A DNA stretch of 64,000 nucleotides from an uncultured Actinomycetota bacterium (lineage in GTDB: Bacteria; Actinomycetota; Actinomycetes; Mycobacteriales; Mycobacteriaceae): positions 741,580-805,579 of the forward strand of contig CAWJIX010000007.1 in assembly GCA_963843125.1 (NCBI GenBank). Reading direction: 5' to 3'. Position numbers and translations under genes: made by a program. This document shows, piece after piece, positions 29,076 to 36,273 of the stretch. Numbering within the stretch: position 1 is the stretch's first letter; each line of letters begins with the position of its first letter. The notes under the pieces were generated by a model. The model ran no database searches. It was given only the letters and a program-made list of their open reading frames with translations, and was not told the origin of the DNA.

Positions 29076-29090
29076 TCGGGTGTTTCCCTA
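29076..29090 (-). promoter_or_regulatory. Putative LuxR-type operator
   Basis: TAGGG-AAACA-CCCGA, 23 nt upstream of -10 TAGCGT (29052-29047); overlaps the LAL gene stop codon. Confidence 0.5.
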
Positions 29091-31847
29091 TGCCTTGAGC
29101 TGGCCGACGTGTCGGCCGAGTTCCGCGCGCGAATGGATGCCGAGCTTGGCGTAGATCCGGGCGAGGTTGGATTCAACCGTCTTCGGGCTGATGTACATGG
29201 CGGCGGCGATGTTGCGGTTGGTCATGCCCGACGCGGCGAGTTCGGCCACCCGGCGTTCCGACGGACTGAGGGCCCCCTTGCAGCCGCCGCCGCGGCGGAC
29301 CCGGCCCACCTCGGTGCGGGCGCGGTCGGCCCACAACGGTGTGCCCAACCGCTCGAACGTCTCCAGCGCAGCGTGCAGGCTCTCCGCCGATGCGTCCTTC
29401 AGGCGCTGACGACGCTGGAGCTGGCCCAGCAGCAGCTGGGTGCGGGCCCGTTCGAACGGCATCGGCATGTGTTCGTGCGCCGTCATCGCTCGTTCGACCG
29501 CATCGACTGCCGCCGCGACATCGCCGCGGGCGGCCAGGATCATGCCGCGGCCCCGACCACCCATGGCCAGCATCCAGTCGCGCCGCAGCCGGGCGCCGTT
29601 GCGCTCGAAAGCGGACACCAGCTGCTCGGCGGGCTCCAGCTGATCGAGCGCGACCATCGCCTCCACTGCGTCAGGGATGAACGACGCCGCGATGATCTCC
29701 GTCACCTTCGGCTCCATCCCCACCTTGCGCAGCAGCGGCCCGACCGCATCGAGCGCGGCACGGTATTCACCCAGAGAGACCTCGAGGAAGCCCAGGGCGG
29801 TCGACGGCCATTCCCCCAGCCTGTCGGAGCCGCAGCGCAGATTGGCCGCGCGCGCTTCGGCGATGTCGGACCGCGCGTCCTCGACGCGACCCTGATAGGC
29901 CGCCAGCAGCGCGCGGCCGGTCAGCGCCGCCGAGAGCGGCAGATCGCCACCGAGTTGCTGGGCGAGCTGCATGGTGTCCTCGGCGATGAGGGCGGCTTCG
30001 GCGAATTGTCCCCGCCAGATGTCGACCAGGACGCCGTGGAACGCGACGAGCATCAGCTCGCCTTCCTGGCCGTGATCGATGCAGCGCTTCCGAAGAGCCG
30101 TCAACTCGTCATGAGCCCAGTCGAGCTCACCGGTGCAGGACCGAAGGATCGCGTTGTGAACGCTGGGGCGAAGCGCGAACGGGATATTCGCCTGCTGGTG
30201 CTCCAGCTCCAGCGCCCGCCTGATCCCCGCTTCGTCGAGACCGCTGCCCTGCAGGAGTCGCACCATGGCCCGCATCCCCAGCGCCTGGCTCAGTAGGTCC
30301 GATCGTCCGGCCCCCCGCGCCCGCGCGACGGCCTCGTCGACCCGCTGCGCCGAAGCGTCGAGGCGACCGGCATTGAACAACGCGAACGACAACGTGACCA
30401 ATGTCGGCACCAACACGGCGGGATCGTCGACGGCCTCGTCCAGCGCACCCTCCAGTAGAGCCACCGCTTCGGGAAAACTGTCGTCGAGCAGCCGCACGTA
30501 ACCGAGCAGGCCGGCCGCTTCCGCGCGCAACCGGCCGGGTTCGAGTTGCGCGATCGCCTCCTCGAGAAGGATGCGCGCCCGAGCGGAGTCACCGGCATTG
30601 AAATGGTGACCGGCCGAGCGGATGCGACGCAGCGGTGTATCGCCGCCGAGTCCGATCGCCAGATCGATCAGTTCGGCCGCCGCGGCCGGTGCGCCCCGGC
30701 TGCGTGCCGAATCGGCCGCCGCGTCGAGAGCCTCCAACGTCGCAGAATCGGCGCGCAGCGATCCCAACGCCAGGTGGCGCGCCCGCACTTCGGGTTCGTC
30801 GACGACGGTGGCCAGCCGTCTGTGCATCGCGCGCCGCCGCTCGGGTGCGGCCTCGTTGTAGACGCCGCGAGCGAATATCGGATGGCTGAACCGCAGCTGT
30901 TCGCCGCTGATCTCGACGACCCCGCGGCCCTCGGCGTCCTCGAGCTGCGCGGCGACGGTGTCCGGGTCGGATCGGAGCGCGCGGGCAACGACGCCCATGG
31001 TCGGTGTCGCCAGACAGGCCACGGCGAGCAATGCGTCGTCGACTCCGGCGTCCCGGCCATGGATCCGTGACCGGATCAACTCCGTCAAGCTGTCCGGAAG
31101 GGCGATATCGGCGCCCGGCTGACGCCCCACCATCGCCTTGGCGAGTTCCAGGGCATAGAACGGATTGCCGCGAGAAGCCTCCTCGATGCGCATCATTTCG
31201 GGCCGTGAGAACGTGCGTCCCAGGCGATTCGAGAGCACGACATGCAGTGCGCCGACACTCATGGCGGGCACGGTCATCCGCCGCATTGTGTCGGGCCTCG
31301 GCAGCTGCAACCACGAGCCGGCGCTCTCGCTGTCTCCGATGCGGACGGTGGCGAGCACGCCGACGGGTCCCACGAGCCGACGCGCCAGGAACGTGATCAC
31401 AAGCCGGGTCGAGGAGTCCAGCCACTGCAGATCATCTACTGCGACAAGCACCTTCGCCGTGTCCGCGAGGATGCCGACGACGGACAACAATCCCGCCGAC
31501 ACGGCACGCTGATCTACCGGAAGACGGTCCGCGTCGGCTCGATGAAGGACGCGATCGAGCGCAACCCGTTGCGGCGTGGGCAATTCCGCGAGTACGGATC
31601 GGTCGATGCCGCTCAGCATGTCGGCCAGGGATGCGTACGCGGGCACCGACTCTGCTGCGACGGCCCGAGCGGTCAGCACGCGGAAGCCGTCGGCTTCGGC
31701 TTGGTGTACCGCCTGCAACCACAAGGTGGTCTTGCCGATTCCCGGCTCTCCCTCCATCACCAGGCCGGACGGCGCAGCGACTATGGAGGCCAAGAACTCG
31801 GCAATCGCCGAGGCCTGCGGCTCACGGCTGACCACCTGCGCTGGCAT
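29088..31847 (-). CDS. LAL-family regulator (AAA ATPase, TPR-like region, LuxR HTH)
   Basis: Walker A GEPGIGKTT, Walker B VDDLQWLD, GNPFY, C-terminal LSPSERRVAELAASGMTNRNIA...SPKTVESNLARIYAKLG. Confidence 0.92.
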   Translation of the reverse strand: MPAQVVSREPQASAIAEFLASIVAAPSGLVMEGEPGIGKTTLWLQAVHQAEADGFRVLTARAVAAESVPAYASLADMLSGIDRSVLAELPTPQRVALDRVLHRADADRLPVDQRAVSAGLLSVVGILADTAKVLVAVDDLQWLDSSTRLVITFLARRLVGPVGVLATVRIGDSESAGSWLQLPRPDTMRRMTVPAMSVGALHVVLSNRLGRTFSRPEMMRIEEASRGNPFYALELAKAMVGRQPGADIALPDSLTELIRSRIHGRDAGVDDALLAVACLATPTMGVVARALRSDPDTVAAQLEDAEGRGVVEISGEQLRFSHPIFARGVYNEAAPERRRAMHRRLATVVDEPEVRARHLALGSLRADSATLEALDAAADSARSRGAPAAAAELIDLAIGLGGDTPLRRIRSAGHHFNAGDSARARILLEEAIAQLEPGRLRAEAAGLLGYVRLLDDSFPEAVALLEGALDEAVDDPAVLVPTLVTLSFALFNAGRLDASAQRVDEAVARARGAGRSDLLSQALGMRAMVRLLQGSGLDEAGIRRALELEHQQANIPFALRPSVHNAILRSCTGELDWAHDELTALRKRCIDHGQEGELMLVAFHGVLVDIWRGQFAEAALIAEDTMQLAQQLGGDLPLSAALTGRALLAAYQGRVEDARSDIAEARAANLRCGSDRLGEWPSTALGFLEVSLGEYRAALDAVGPLLRKVGMEPKVTEIIAASFIPDAVEAMVALDQLEPAEQLVSAFERNGARLRRDWMLAMGGRGRGMILAARGDVAAAVDAVERAMTAHEHMPMPFERARTQLLLGQLQRRQRLKDASAESLHAALETFERLGTPLWADRARTEVGRVRRGGGCKGALSPSERRVAELAASGMTNRNIAAAMYISPKTVESNLARIYAKLGIHSRAELGRHVGQLKA

Positions 31848-32663
31848 GAATTGATGCTGACAGGTGGCAACCGACCGGTCTATGCCTTAGCTGTTTCTCA
31901 CGGCGATTCGTTCGTATCGCCCTCGGCGCCCGTGTCCCTGTCGTCGTCAGGTCCAGTCATGGCCTTGACCGCGTCCCGGACACGGTCGCGGATTCCGTGG
32001 ATGCCGTCGCGAATACTGTTCCGCACAGCGGTCAGGCTCGGCGCGCCGGCGCTTCGTCCCGCGGGGTCGGCAACGAACAAGCGCGGACGGCGCCTGGGAA
32101 CAGGCTGGCAAACCTTGAATTCATGATTCCGTTGGTGTCATCTGCGAGCGGTGGGCAGGAGATTCGTCATCCCCGGGTCCACGAGGCGCTCTGACGATGC
32201 CATTGACCAATGGTTGCCACGTTTTCGGGCCGTGCCGACCTGGCAAGAAAATTGCGCATTACCGTCAATATGTGCTGCGCTTCACCGTTGCCAAGCTAAG
32301 CTATCCAGATCGCGAACCAGGGTTAGGTAACGGGCGGATATCGGCAGCCGACTATCCAACCTATCAAGCAGCACAAAAGCGGCGCGCTGTGTTAGTCTCG
32401 TGTTAGCTGGAGATCGTTGCGAGGGTAACAATTTTTGGCTCGACGGATGGAAGGGAGGCTTAGCTGATGCTAGCGTTCGACGCGACGCGTTCGTCAGATT
32501 CGTCAACCCAACCTGCTCCGGCCCAGGTTGCTGTCAAGATTCCAGATGCGCACGAGCCCACCGTCATTCGCAGCTGCAGCCGGCTCGGCCGCAGCGCCAA
32601 TCCACCGGGGTTTTCCTTCTCCGATTGGCTACGCGATTGGCGTTGTCGCTGAGAGCGGCGTGA

Positions 32664-33041: not shown

Positions 33042-33518
33042 GTGGCACAGACCCTCCGCCTGGAGGTGGGCGACAAAGCTCCCGCGTTCAGCCTGCCCGA
33101 CGCCGACGGCGACACGGTGTCACTCGCCGACTATCGCGGCCGCAAAGTCATCGTCTACTTCTATCCGGCGGCATCGACGCCCGGATGCACAAAGGAGGCG
33201 TGCGACTTCCGCGACAATTTGGGTGAGCTCAGCGACGCCGGCCTCGATGTCGTCGGCATCTCGCCGGACAAGCCGGAGAAACTCGCCAAGTTCCGCGACA
33301 ACGAGAAGCTCACCTTTCCGCTGCTGTCCGATCCCGACCGCAAGGTGTTGACGGCGTGGGGCGCCTACGGCGATAAGACGATGTACGGCAAGACCGTGCA
33401 GGGCGTCATCCGCTCGACGTTCGTCGTCGACGAGAAGGGCAAGATCGACGTCGCGCAATACAACATCAAGGCTGCACATACGACAACATTCATCAAAAAG
33501 CTGCTCGGTGCCTCGTAA
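33042..33518 (+). CDS. bcp: Thioredoxin-dependent peroxiredoxin Bcp with a substituted C-terminus
   Basis: YFYPAASTPGCTKEACDFRD, RSTFVVDE; last 14 codons come from inserted DNA. Confidence 0.93.
   Translation: MAQTLRLEVGDKAPAFSLPDADGDTVSLADYRGRKVIVYFYPAASTPGCTKEACDFRDNLGELSDAGLDVVGISPDKPEKLAKFRDNEKLTFPLLSDPDRKVLTAWGAYGDKTMYGKTVQGVIRSTFVVDEKGKIDVAQYNIKAAHTTTFIKKLLGAS
33452..33472 (+). repeat. 21-bp direct repeat, left copy (attL-like) in bcp
   Basis: CGCGCAATACAACATCAAGGC, identical to 34861-34881. Confidence 0.92.
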
Positions 33519-33788
33519 TCATGTGGACGGTGTGTCAGGTACGGCGGGAATCGTTGTCACGGATTGATTCTCGGCCGATCACATGTTCGGCTGTCGGTTA
33601 CAACACGACGCCCGCGCCCGCTCACTTAATTACCAGGACGTAGTCAGCTTGAGCCGTGCTTCCCCTGAGCTGACCTCCACAGCAGGCGGAAAAGGACCAT
33701 CGACTCTATAGAACTCCGAGATGTGAGCGCATTCTTTGTGCGAGACATTCGAGACTGATTTCCTTTCAGCCATTCCTTGGGAGCGATC

Positions 33789-34118
33789 ATGGCAGAAGGC
33801 ACCGAGAAGAAGATGGCGCCGGAACGAGCGTCAGACCTAACAGAACGAGTAGCAGGCCTGTCCGACGAAGTGCTCAAGTCGGTCGAATCCGGACAACGGA
33901 CCGCCATTGATGCCGTGCGCAAGTTCGTTGGCGCTGTCGATGAGTCTATGCCGGGGAATGCCGACGACCATTCGTCGAGACGCAATACCATCGTCGACGC
34001 CGCCCTCGATATGGCGGACAAGCTAGTCAAGACGCAGTACGAGTTCATACGGAGCGTCGTCGGCAGTGCGAGCGAGACGCTGAAAAAGCAGGGCGACGAG
34101 AAGCCAACTACTGAGTAA
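33789..34118 (+). CDS. Helical hypothetical protein (amphipathic, phasin/HBHA-like by composition)
   Basis: 109 aa, heptad-like pattern, GGAG RBS; family not securely identified. Confidence 0.7.
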   Translation: MAEGTEKKMAPERASDLTERVAGLSDEVLKSVESGQRTAIDAVRKFVGAVDESMPGNADDHSSRRNTIVDAALDMADKLVKTQYEFIRSVVGSASETLKKQGDEKPTTE

Positions 34119-34258
34119 GTCGCGCTGCTTGGCCCCTAAGGGTCCTCGCTGGGTGGTCCGACGCCCGGCTCTGTGGAGAGTCTCCGATCGGTTCAACGAG
34201 GTGGCTACACCGGTTTCTTACAGCGCGCTAGCCCAGGTCACCGGAGGACAAAACCACA

Positions 34259-34774
34259 ATGAGCCAACAGTCCGCTGTCACCTCCGTCGAATCTCTCGAC
34301 CTCAACCGCTACAGCGGCCTTTGGTATGAGCTGGGAAGGCTCCCGCTCAAATGGGAGCACGCCGATGCATCGGACATCACCGCCGAATACACGCTCGAGG
34401 ACGACGGAAGCGTGCGTGTCGACAACCGGTGTATCGACGAGGACGGCACACCGTCGCAGTCGATCGGTCGCGCGACCCCTGTGAACGGCCAGGCGGGACG
34501 GTTGCAGGTGTCGTTCCTTCCGCAGTTCCTGCAGTGGGTCCCTTTCACGAAAGGTGACTACTGGGTTCTGAAGATCGACGACGCCTACTCGGTTGCCCTT
34601 GTCGGTACACCCGACCACAAAAACCTGTGGCTTCTGGCCCGGGATCCTCGCATCGACCACGCCACGGAAGCGGCCTACCTCGCCGAAGCGACCGGGCAGG
34701 GGTTCGATCTCGGAAAGTGGATCACACCGAGGCAGTCGGGTGGGCGCGTCACCGACGATCGACTCGACCGCTGA
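34259..34774 (+). CDS. Blc-like lipocalin without signal peptide
   Basis: SCR1 RYSGLWYELGR, DYWVLKIDDAY..ALVG, LWLLARDP; GGAGG RBS. Confidence 0.9.
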   Translation: MSQQSAVTSVESLDLNRYSGLWYELGRLPLKWEHADASDITAEYTLEDDGSVRVDNRCIDEDGTPSQSIGRATPVNGQAGRLQVSFLPQFLQWVPFTKGDYWVLKIDDAYSVALVGTPDHKNLWLLARDPRIDHATEAAYLAEATGQGFDLGKWITPRQSGGRVTDDRLDR

Positions 34775-34860
34775 TCCGGAAACCGGCTCACCGCTACCAC
34801 GCGGCCTGGAACTCGCACTAGGGGGCCCACCCCATCCGGTGGTGGTCGGCCACACTCAGG

Positions 34861-34924
34861 CGCGCAATACAACATCAAGGCCACCGGGCACGTGGCCAAG
34901 CTGCGTCGCGACCTATCTGTCTGA
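34861..34924 (+). pseudogene. Right repeat copy plus displaced original bcp 3' end
   Basis: 34862-34924 encodes AQYNIKATGHVAKLRRDLSV-stop, the usual mycobacterial Bcp C-terminus as recalled; ends 14 bp from the convergent dipeptidase stop. Confidence 0.88.
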
Positions 34925-34938
34925 TTGCGCGCTGCCCC

Positions 34939-36273
34939 TCACGTCCGCGAAGCCAAATTCGCCAACAGCAGCGCCTCCGCGGTCGCGGCGCGTTCCAGCA
35001 CCCCGAGGTGCAGGCTCTCGTTGATGCTATGGGCCTGTGTCCCAGGGTCTTCCACGCCAGTGACCAAGATCTTCGCTGACGGGAAGGCGTCTGCGAACTC
35101 GGCGATGAACGGGATCGAGCCACCCATGCCCATGTCGACCGGTTCGGTCCCCCACGCCTGCCGGAACGCGGCGCGGGCCGCGTCGTAGACGGGTCCGCTC
35201 GCGTCGATCGCGTACGGCTGGCCGATATCGCCGGGCGTGACCGTGAGGCGTGCGCCCCACGGCACGTGCTTCTCCAGGTGGCGCGTCAGCGCGTCGAGGT
35301 GAGCCCGCGCCTTGCCGCCCGGCGCCACCCGCATGCTGACCTTCGCCCGCGCCCTCGGGATCAGCGTGTTCGACGACGACGCGATCGGCGTGGTGTCGAT
35401 CCCGATGACCGTGATCGCCGGCTTGGCCCAAAGACGTTGCGGCACTGAGCCGGAGCCGATCTCGGTGACACCGTCGAGCATGCCCGACTCTTCGCGGACC
35501 CGGTCCTTCGGATAGTCCACATCGGCGGCGGTCGCCTCGTGCAGGCCCTCGACGGCGACATTGCCGTCGTCGTCATGCAGTGATGCCAACAGCCGCACCA
35601 GCACGCTCAGCGCGTCGGGGACCACGCCGCCCCACAGGCCCGAGTGCAAGCCGTGGTCAAGCGTGGCCACCTCCACCACACAGTCCGCCAGTCCGCGCAG
35701 CGACACCGTCAGCGCCGGGGTCTCGGTGCTCCAGTTGTCGGAGTCGGCGATGACGATGACATCGGCGGCCAACGTGTCCTTGTGCGCGGCCAGCAGTCGG
35801 CGCAGCGACGGCGACCCGATCTCCTCTTCGCCTTCGACGAACACCGTCACACCGACGGGAGGCTGACCGTCGTGCGCCCGGAACGCGGCGAGATGCGTTG
35901 CGATGCCCGCCTTGTCGTCGGCGCTTCCGCGGCCGTATAGGCGCCCGTCGCGCTCGGTCGGCTCGAACGGCGCCGACACCCACTGGTCGGGATCGCCCTC
36001 GGGCTGGACATCATGGTGCGCGTACAGCAGAACCGTCGGCGCGCCCGCAGGCGCCGGGTGTCGGGCGATGACGGCAGGCGCGCCGCCCTCGCTGACGATC
36101 TGTACATCACCGAAACCGGCTTGCCGCAACACCTCTGCCACCGCGTCGGCGCTGCGCTGGACCTCGCCGCGCCGCGCTGGGTCCGCTCCGACCGACTGAA
36201 TGCGCACCAGGTCTTCCAGATCGCGCCGCACCGACGGCAGCACGTCACGCACCCGCTCAACGAGATCGCTCAT
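34939..36273 (-). CDS. M20/M25/M40 metallo-dipeptidase (Rv2522c-like)
   Basis: YAHHDVQP, GRGSADDK, EGEEE, DLHSG-like HSG, QAHSINE. Confidence 0.92.
   Translation of the reverse strand: MSDLVERVRDVLPSVRRDLEDLVRIQSVGADPARRGEVQRSADAVAEVLRQAGFGDVQIVSEGGAPAVIARHPAPAGAPTVLLYAHHDVQPEGDPDQWVSAPFEPTERDGRLYGRGSADDKAGIATHLAAFRAHDGQPPVGVTVFVEGEEEIGSPSLRRLLAAHKDTLAADVIVIADSDNWSTETPALTVSLRGLADCVVEVATLDHGLHSGLWGGVVPDALSVLVRLLASLHDDDGNVAVEGLHEATAADVDYPKDRVREESGMLDGVTEIGSGSVPQRLWAKPAITVIGIDTTPIASSSNTLIPRARAKVSMRVAPGGKARAHLDALTRHLEKHVPWGARLTVTPGDIGQPYAIDASGPVYDAARAAFRQAWGTEPVDMGMGGSIPFIAEFADAFPSAKILVTGVEDPGTQAHSINESLHLGVLERAATAEALLLANLASRT

Follow-up and report, generated by a model that had tools for sequence, protein, structure and literature searches.

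A two-gene cassette at the 3′ end of a mycobacterial bcp gene and the substitute peroxiredoxin tail that accompanies it

The insert in bcp and its boundaries

The subject of this report is an insertion in bcp, the gene for a peroxiredoxin of the PrxQ/BCP type, in a stretch of 64,000 nucleotides from an uncultured bacterium of the Mycobacteriaceae (contig CAWJIX010000007.1; the whole stretch is called the window here, and positions are counted from its first letter). The insertion point lies directly after codon Ala144, the inserted DNA is bounded on each side by one copy of a 21-bp direct repeat, and the codons that now end the gene come from the insert, the native ending being stranded on its far side. 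The features on which the argument turns are these:

33042..33518, plus strand: chimeric bcp, encoding a thioredoxin-dependent thiol peroxidase of the PrxQ/BCP type, 158 aa (Pfam/NCBIfam)
33452..33472, plus strand: left copy of the 21-bp repeat, attL core region (sequence, repeat search, shuffles)
33473..34860, plus strand: inserted DNA, 1,388 bp, G+C ~0.60 (absent from the nearest genome, L001)
33474..33518, plus strand: substitute tail codons AHTTTFIKKLLGAS and stop, an "F-type" tail (sequence)
34861..34881, plus strand: right copy of the 21-bp repeat, attR core region (sequence, repeat search, shuffles)
34882..34924, plus strand: displaced, untranslated native bcp tail TGHVAKLRRDLSV and stop, B′ arm (sequence)
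34939..36273, minus strand: convergent M20 dipeptidase, flanking gene (Pfam Peptidase_M20)

The two copies of the repeat (CGCGCAATACAACATCAAGGC) are identical, as an earlier note on this DNA had claimed and as both the sequence and a repeat search confirm. The edges are sharp, in that the neighbouring bases differ at both ends; no third copy exists in the 64-kb window when up to 3 mismatches are allowed, and 100 dinucleotide shuffles gave an expectation of 0 chance matches. Along the insert G+C ranges from 0.54 to 0.61, with 0.60 for the cassette as a whole, against 0.64–0.73 in the flanks.

The Bcp protein matches Pfam AhpC-TSA (8.9e-43) and NCBIfam PRK09437 (2e-48), its homologues begin MAQTPRLEVGDKAPAF, and the peroxidatic Cys motif TPGCT is present, with T46-P47-G48-C49-T50 invariant in the homologue alignment. 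Residues 1–144 are host-derived and residues 145–158 element-derived, so that the C-terminus reads ...VAQYNIKA-AHTTTFIKKLLGAS-stop. The displaced native tail TGHVAKLRRDLSV stays in the bcp frame 3′ of the right repeat copy, and 14 bp separate its end from the stop of the convergent dipeptidase gene; the swap of tails at NIKA and the stranding of the native tail beside the dipeptidase, both described in the earlier note, are thus plain in the sequence. The dipeptidase belongs to the conserved order bcp-dipeptidase-acpS-fas, and the genes around it in the window (DUF3618 gene, bcp, dipeptidase, acpS, fas-I) are ordered as in Mycobacterium.

Several familiar kinds of insertion were considered and rejected. 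A transposon or insertion sequence (IS) was set aside because no inverted repeat joins the insert ends and no transposase is present, and the reading of the 21-bp repeat as a target-site duplication because the repeat is a fixed sequence common to all loci. An integron was rejected because no recombinase lies upstream of bcp, where a DUF3618 protein and a LuxR-type regulator are encoded; the absence of inverted site copies among the detected sites also counts against it. An attachment (att) site of the tRNA type is excluded because Rfam and tRNA scans of the region gave no match.

An inverted repeat, GGCCACCGGGCACGTGGCC, lies within the displaced native tail (window 34879–34897, minus strand). 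Together with a T-rich run on the minus strand it has a terminator-like score, 3′ of the convergent dipeptidase, and it could be the dipeptidase terminator, a part of the integrase B′ arm, or chance.

Ancestral state of bcp and complete elements at the same site

The ancestral form of bcp was sought in a survey that took one genome per species and comprised 80 Mycobacteriales loci. The native ending, ...YN(V/I)(K/R)ATGHVAKLRRDLSV, is found in 68 of the 80, spanning Nocardia, Rhodococcus, Gordonia, Williamsia and Mycobacteroides, and a tail of the AAHTTT kind in the other 12. In the closest genome (L001, Bcp 92% identical) the tail is native, the site is empty and 49 bp separate the bcp stop from the dipeptidase; the target is likewise uninterrupted in 67 other loci, native bcp being followed directly by the dipeptidase or by another neighbour. 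Precise deletion of the insert would give the empty-site junction CGCGCAATACAACATCAAGGCCACCGGG directly after codon 141, and the displaced tail of the window differs from the native tail of L001 at 3 positions, all of them synonymous. Because alternative tails precede displaced native tails, 0.76 to ~9 kb further downstream, in L003, L004, L005 and L033, the AHTTT tail can be seen to come with inserted DNA. The native tail is the ancestral state.

The converse, in which the AHTTTF ending is ancestral and the TGHVAKL piece downstream is a stray, or in which the whole arrangement is an assembly artefact, could draw on lineages that have the alternative tail alone and no native remnant (L040, and Mycobacterium sp. 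SMC-2). We regard it as very improbable. The native tail is found almost throughout, in Mycobacteroides as in Nocardia, Rhodococcus, Gordonia and Williamsia, and its presence in 68 of 80 loci speaks against the AHTTTF ancestry that the earlier note had itself raised. The alternative tail always accompanies an insertion, or a decayed insertion in ameliorated lineages such as L168, and it is the P′ arm of complete integrase elements, described next. Misassembly is unlikely because the independent assemblies L168, L174 and L107 show the same architecture, which is found in at least four independent assemblies.

A 9-kb element in Nocardia (L033) has bcp + AAHTTINIDRILGKRK as its attL and a displaced native tail as its attR. 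Its cargo comprises helix-turn-helix (HTH) regulators, a Prim-Pol gene and a 510–525-aa large serine recombinase (LSR; domains Resolvase, Recombinase and Zn_ribbon_recom) whose start lies 22 bp from the displaced tail, and the identity between its attL and attR is limited to CAGTACAACGTC. Two soil Mycobacterium metagenome contigs (L138 and L170), which overlap over 10,022 bp at 99.97%, together give an element of ~12.3 kb. The left junction of L138 is bcp + AAHTTTNIQKILKQATA, with an AHTTT-type tail, and the right end runs from the integrase (Int) through catgTTGTCaagagtaccgcccag, abutting TACAAC, into the native tail, with the arrangement catgTTGTC-N15-TACAAC. Since complete elements have the same tail on the left, and integrase, TTGTC-N15-TACAAC and native tail on the right, the substitute tail can be identified as the P′ arm of attP.

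Homologues of this integrase, 52–60% identical, make up a clade that spans Mycobacterium, Mycolicibacter, Mycolicibacterium and Mycobacteroides. Among phage enzymes the serine integrases of cluster A mycobacteriophages come nearest, at 46–50% identity, and no deposited phage integrase was more than 60% identical to the clade. Six further homologues were inspected, and all lie 15–60 bp from a displaced bcp tail. Clade members at the bcp tail are found in an M. virginiensis prophage (L163), an M. abscessus prophage (L164/L165, where the LSR gene adjoins the displaced tail ...SQYNVKATGHVAKLRRDISV), L171, Mycobacterium BMJ-28 (L166) and L167, and the P arm TTGTC-N15-TACAAC is common to all clade members with readable context. 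The earlier note had proposed bcp as an attB whose C-terminus is supplied by the element and had suggested a search for integrase-bearing elements there; serine-integrase elements do occupy the exact site with the same type of tail (L033, L138/L170 and the further clade loci), and the site is a listed one, attB-19.

The cargo of these elements is varied. The BMJ-28 element (L166:11635-21638) carries SocA_Panacea and PemK-like genes, and that of L167 (11793-21647) a type I restriction-modification system and a small resolvase; because such cargo is of the defence type, the bcp site also hosts defence islands. In Mycolicibacter arupensis DSM 44942 (L008:4240-13938) an alternative-tail Bcp is followed by DUF2971, Prim-Pol and an IS3-type transposase up to the contig end. 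A clade LSR (P0029) is recorded for M. arupensis but could not be located, and L008 probably holds a third intact element divided by assembly.

The site has its place in the literature as attB-19 of M. abscessus, with the core AGTACAACGTG, a serine integrase (Int-S) and the target Mab_1515c (Table S2, PMC10654092), and it is used by the serine-integrase prophage prophiGD150-1 (PMC9934374). Mab_1515c is annotated "alkyl hydroperoxide reductase". The corresponding features of the window are:

33457..33467, plus strand: AATACAACATC, counterpart of the 11-bp attB-19 common core AGTACAACGTG (Table S2 of PMC10654092)
33463..33486, plus strand: P′ half-site ACATCAAGGCTGCACATACGACAA, in frame as codons ...IKAAHTTT (consensus of 67 sites, complete elements)

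The 21-bp repeat of the window contains the 11–12-bp core of L033 and attB-19. Its P′ half-site is intact save for a host-type A at 33465 and otherwise agrees with the consensus drawn from 67 distinct sites, TACAACGTcAaGGCtGCACATACGACAACA; TACAACGTcAaGGCtGCACATACGACAACAaa.ATccagaagat. L033 and L138/L170, both complete elements with an integrase, have the same P′ arm. When the P and P′ arms are joined they give a 48-bp site, TTGTC-N38-GACAA, the reconstructed attP being TTGTC-N15-TACA/ACGTCAAGGCTGCACATACGACAA. In this site 12 of 24 positions are dyad-symmetric about TACA/ACGT (shuffle p 0.004), and the dyad centre falls within the minimal attL/attR identity. A 48-bp dyad geometry is the expected form of a serine-integrase attP. 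In the window the centre of the crossover would be the AA at 33462–33463.

At the right end of the window insert the match to complete elements breaks off. GGCCA stands at the position of TTGTC, with 5/5 mismatches, so the P half-site feature is absent, and the final 7 nt of the cassette, CGCGCAA, match the bcp B arm. The P-arm motif is kept only in L033, L135, L091/L154 and the other integrase-bearing loci; a cognate integrase stands beside the att site in L033, L138/L170, L163, L164, L166, L167 and L171, and is absent in the window, where tblastn found no LSR homologue in the 64 kb. The loss of the integrase put forward in the earlier note is borne out by this, and no directionality factor was found in the window either. 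In cassette right ends the TTGTC spacing varies by family (N10, N11, N15, N18), and no conclusion is drawn from N10 versus N15 because natural B/B′ arms lack the motif.

We think it likely that the insert is what is left, without its integrase, of an element that entered bcp through an LSR acting at the attB-19 site. Recombination of attP with attB by the LSR would have taken place within (C)A(G/A)TACAAC(G/A)T(C/G), most likely at the AA of TACA/AC, and integration would have put the P′ arm of the element in frame after Ala144, so that 14 element-encoded residues end Bcp and 13 native codons are stranded at attR. The tail would thereby play a double role, in that its first 13 bases finish the P′ half-site and the whole of it makes a workable PrxQ C-terminus. 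Later loss of the integrase, the remaining element and the distal P arm would have left the attL-proximal cargo (the 109-aa and lipocalin genes, described below), and short-tract gene conversion between the junctions probably lengthened their identity from ~12 to 21 bp. Loss of the cassette or return of the native tail would now come about only through rare homology-driven recombination, as by deletion across the 21 bp or, for the native tail, by gene conversion.

Relatives of the cassette, arrays and rival histories

The ORFs (open reading frames) of the insert are two cargo genes only, followed by the right end already discussed:

33789..34118, plus strand: cargo gene 1, 109-aa protein, with an alternative TTG start at 33777 (ORF, homologues)
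34259..34774, plus strand: cargo gene 2, Blc-type bacterial lipocalin, 171 aa (Pfam Lipocalin_2, 6.3e-41)
34775..34860, plus strand: cassette right end, GGCCA instead of TTGTC, no integrase remnant (comparison with integrase-bearing elements)

The lipocalin also matches the NCBIfam Blc subfamily, at 6.1e-26 and under that model's cut-off. For the 109-aa protein no Pfam or NCBIfam match rose above cut-off, the sub-threshold ones being kleA_kleC, Phasin_2 and YtxH. It has 217 homologues, and those named by source belong to Mycobacterium, Mycolicibacterium or Nocardia, with the single exception of a metagenome-assembled genome labelled Candidatus Sericytochromatia. Its gene is conserved in the homologous cassettes L107, L090, L168 and L174. 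The L107 cassette, 83% identical over 1,177 bp, is internal in an array, with alternative-type sites on both sides and a different right end; L090/L149 hold an 811-bp version that shares the F-type tail, the 109-aa gene and the right end but has no lipocalin; and L168 and SMC-2 (CP079863.1) have the order Bcp, 109-aa gene, lipocalin, dipeptidase at 79–87% identity, with decayed att sites. In M. gilvum (L175/L176:6001-7248) the pair of cargo genes lies directly 3′ of intact groES-groEL1 and is followed by an Rv1352-like gene. Because this pair looks like an ordinary resident locus, the cargo probably originated in the chromosome of a mycobacterium. A second LSR site at M. gilvum groEL1 was considered and dropped, since groEL1 and its Bxb1-attB-like stretch are intact.

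With no integrase and no distal P arm, the window cassette is probably immobile in cis. Some relatives keep more of the lost end: L135 has a 30-residue N-terminal integrase fragment and TTGTT-N15 adjoining attR, L091/L154 retain catgTTGTT-N15, and L096, L005 and L121 retain catgTTGTC or catgTTGGA, followed by 18 nt resembling the bcp B arm. The earlier note had gone further and proposed a two-state allele, with recombination between the repeats restoring the native enzyme. Serine integrases require Int together with a recombination directionality factor for excision, and since the window has neither of these and no distal P arm, and there is no sign of regulation, the idea of a switch was not upheld. 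What relatives do show, in L037 and L091, is restoration of the native end over evolutionary time.

The traces of such events are specific. L091:8248-8330 holds a hybrid tail, with a native 5′ half and an alternative 3′ half; L037:10418-10989 has a native tail before a SnoaL cassette and a second core with a native tail after it, both cores carrying the host ATCAGG; in L003:13193-13930 two native tails, paralogous to each other, agree for 9 nt beyond the stop. In arrays of relatives the cores are homogenised. The loci L037, L091 and L003 suggest that short-tract gene conversion is able to regenerate a true attB, and conversion between the junctions would also explain why the window identity is 21 bp as against 11–12 bp in intact elements, and why both window copies have the host-type CAA and ATC. 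Duplication of part of bcp is found as well: L090 (7740-7900) and L083 (828-2800) have a decayed or intact native tail, a conserved spacer and 87 nt copied from the 3′ end of bcp (GVIRSTFVVDEKGKIAVA and stop), followed by a core, an F-type alternative tail and a cassette.

The wider use of the site was followed in metagenomes with the attL/attP pattern, which returned 82 soil and sediment contigs; as this sample was selected on the exact P′ pattern, apparent conservation of the site is inflated in it. Under strict criteria for the sites, 36 complete cassettes were recovered, from 566 bp to 9 kb long; internal sites that a profile search detected in these loci split some of the units in two, 36 being a lower bound. 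Direct arrays hold up to 4 cassettes, L005 having four alternative sites and a native tail, and the 194 detected sites are all direct, with 0 inverted. The small cassettes carry SnoaL_2, SRPBCC, cupin, two F420H2-dependent quinone reductases, a bestrophin-like protein and several proteins of no assigned family, and the larger units carry BBE oxidase, nitrilase, amidohydrolase, P-type ATPase, PE lipase and STAND/LuxR regulators. Some 24 loci have the SnoaL cassette, alone or first, internal or last in an array, and untranslated internal tails are intact in 16 of 20. In L156 (1536-6875, oriented coordinates) a 5.3-kb cassette holds a PE-domain lipase/esterase and a 1,094-aa adenylate-cyclase/NB-ARC/LuxR regulator, from which it follows that PE-family genes travel at the bcp site.

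Some points weigh against the reading of the window cassette as a decayed remnant. Its right end has no trace of a P arm or an integrase, and the integrase-bearing parent is inferred from relatives; no parent element with both the 109-aa and the lipocalin gene was found in the phage and IMG/VR searches. Most loci with pristine att sites are small integrase-less cassettes, seemingly too many for slow decay, although selection on P′ sequence in the metagenome scan biases this count. Finally, the att sequences of the window are pristine while its cargo differs by 13–20% from that of all relatives, a combination which needs either recent arrival or active maintenance of the site. We read the cassette as a fairly recent arrival from a diverse pool, maintenance of its sites being a less favoured possibility. 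The searches for a parent were otherwise as follows: IMG/VR gave no match to the exact 21-mer, the degenerate attL/attP pattern, the 109-aa protein or integrase P0010, and no free phage or attP form was recovered from these scans; BLASTN with the insert found nothing in the phage collection and only weak lipocalin matches, in alpha-proteobacteria, in the plasmid collection.

The cassette could also still be mobile, as a mini-element moved in trans by the LSR of a resident or incoming element, with the arrays as a platform. Such a unit would resemble a cis-mobilizable element (CIME) or a pseudo-SCC (SCC, staphylococcal cassette chromosome). It would account for the recurrence of the same cassettes with core-to-core boundaries across arrays and positions (SnoaL, ~24 loci), for the internal position of the window cassette in the L107 array, for the direct orientation of all 194 sites and the mostly intact internal untranslated tails (16/20), and for the fact that in loci chosen by protein the P′ DNA tends to be either near-pristine or heavily ameliorated. 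We nevertheless judge it unlikely. The small cassettes lack the distal P-arm TTGTC at the position where it is found in every integrase-bearing element, and phage-type LSRs are strict for attP × attB. The right ends of homologous cassettes differ (window versus L107), as independent trimming predicts; hybrid and duplicated native tails indicate homologous recombination and gene conversion, and selection on the exact P′ pattern inflates the apparent conservation of the sites. A broader form of the idea makes the bcp 3′ end in Mycobacteriales a platform like that of SCC at rlmH, where LSRs of the attB-19 clade, acting in trans, stack and reshuffle single-gene cassettes and the window unit can still be mobilised; each cassette would bring its own Bcp tail, and gene conversion from the displaced tail would renew attB. 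To this, too, we give little credence.

It is possible, though we lean against it, that the lineage gained the cassette allele when homologous recombination brought in the whole bcp-dipeptidase interval of another Mycobacterium, after conjugation or transduction, for instance. The bcp and dipeptidase flanks are highly conserved between species; SMC-2, L168 and the window have the same cassette in the same place at 79–87% nucleotide identity, which is near that of the flanks; and both repeat copies have the identical CAA and ATC variants. Transfer of an allele, on the other hand, leaves the first insertion unexplained and still requires integration by an LSR, and the displaced tail equals that of the closest empty-site relative save at the 3 synonymous positions, which fits an event in situ or a donor that was a close relative.

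One further feature lies upstream of bcp, a low-G+C stretch at window 32005–32660 (0.55 at 32100–32500), with no convincing ORF and no Rfam match. Its neighbours are the gene for a LuxR-type STAND regulator (29088–31847, minus strand) on one side and the DUF3618 gene on the other. At this position the related contig L168 carries a gene of 340 aa that is missing from the window.

The substitute tail, known systems and significance

The tail codons GCA CAT ACG ACA ACA end largely in A or T, an unusual choice in a genome so rich in G+C, and they coincide with the outer part of the P′ half-site. The F-type tail also heads cassettes in L090, L005, L083 and L003 and ends many database Bcp proteins; more broadly, AHTTT-type tails are found in 103 of the 120 best database relatives of the window Bcp, in >55 variants, and the pattern of the alternative tails is A-H-T-(T/S/A)-T-x-(I/L/V)-x-(K/R/Q)-x-(I/L). 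On a reading of the sequences, native and window tails share an early His, a hydrophobic residue at +7, a basic one at +8/+9 and Leu at +11. The earlier note was thus right that the substitute keeps a His; its suggestion that the tail is amphipathic fared less well, as the helical hydrophobic moment is not significant for either the native or the window tail.

Old insertions are the most informative. In L168 the P′ DNA has drifted to GCGCACACGTCAACC and the peptide AHTSTFVKKLLGAS is kept, with a decayed attR remnant; in SMC-2 the P′ DNA has drifted to GCGCACACAACATCG, the peptide AHTTSFIQKVLSAS is kept and the native tail is deleted. Both preserve AHT(S/T)(T/S)F(V/I).K.L despite the changed P′ DNA, and L040 has an alternative tail without any insert. 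Because in old insertions the DNA drifted and the peptide was kept, the tail is under selection at the protein level, and we infer that it works as a PrxQ C-terminus; conservation alone would further suggest that the two tails are functionally equivalent. Structure adds little here: AlphaFold2 models were poor, with a mean pLDDT (predicted local distance difference test) of 61 for the chimeric Bcp (67-sequence alignment) and 45 for the native form (6 sequences), the C-terminus being below 50, and homologues from a sequence search of the PDB align only as far as the junction, residues 144–146.

The staphylococcal elements SCCmec, pseudo-SCC and the SCC composite islands, which lie at the 3′ end of rlmH (orfX), offer a comparison. 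They too have large serine recombinases, enter the 3′ end of a conserved gene with the frame kept, leave direct repeats at the junctions, accrete in tandem and include many units without a recombinase. Insertion at a 3′ end between direct repeats is shared by the window, which has one unit, and by its relatives, with arrays of up to 4. The bcp system differs in that the nearest relatives found for its integrases are mycobacteriophage Int-S, and in that its cargo consists of small enzymes and ligand-binding proteins rather than resistance genes. CIMEs are similar as integrase-less units between att-derived direct repeats, arrayed with related elements; they keep both functional att sites, whereas the window cassette has no distal P arm, and its competence for mobilisation is doubtful. 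Integron cassettes resemble those at bcp in being compact, mostly single-gene units in one orientation, each opening with a conserved site sequence, and differ in that here the enzyme is a serine integrase, the sites are not attC-like hairpins, no IntI or attI is seen in the flanks read, and some cargo lies on the opposite strand, for example the SRPBCC gene in L140.

Closer at hand are the mycobacterial attachment sites. The window shares with attB-19 and prophiGD150-1 the gene family, the position and the core (AGTACAACGTG versus AATACAACATC), and differs in that a full prophage with its integrase is found there and a 1.4-kb two-gene remnant, in another Mycobacterium species, here. Bxb1, whose attB is in groEL1, and other cluster A Int-S are alike in belonging to the Resolvase, Recombinase and Zn ribbon family, in having an attP of ~48 bp that is partly dyad-symmetric, and in having a target within a protein-coding gene near the 3′ end; clade and target are distinct, however, and at bcp the P′ arm restores a working reading frame, whereas a statement quoted in PMC8092301 has Bxb1 disrupting groEL1. 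At attB-8 (MAB_2979) the final 7 residues give way to 8 encoded by a prophage that has a tyrosine integrase (PMC8092301). There, too, an element has entered the 3′ end of an ORF and supplies a C-terminus presumed to function; the integrase family and the gene are different, and no cassette arrays are reported for it. The texts of PMC10654092, PMC9934374 and PMC8092301, in the portions read, do not mention bcp, its replacement C-terminus, cassettes or arrays. The site and the enzyme family were already known. What appears to be undescribed in the literature searched is how widely the site is used, how the P′ arm doubles as a protein tail that outlives the element, and that cassettes form arrays there.

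Overall, these observations indicate that a mobile element can occupy a coding attB without killing the gene, since the P′ half doubles as the C-terminal segment of a peroxiredoxin. Because the peptide outlives the DNA site (L168, SMC-2, L040), a part of a housekeeping enzyme has become permanently element-derived in several mycobacterial lineages, and annotation pipelines should expect two classes of Bcp C-terminus. The integrase clade and its 48-bp attP could yield an integration vector for a site that is conserved across mycobacteria. What was one line in a table for M. abscessus, attB-19, becomes a hotspot across Mycobacterium, Mycolicibacter, Mycobacteroides and Nocardia, whose users include prophages, defence islands and mini-cassettes.

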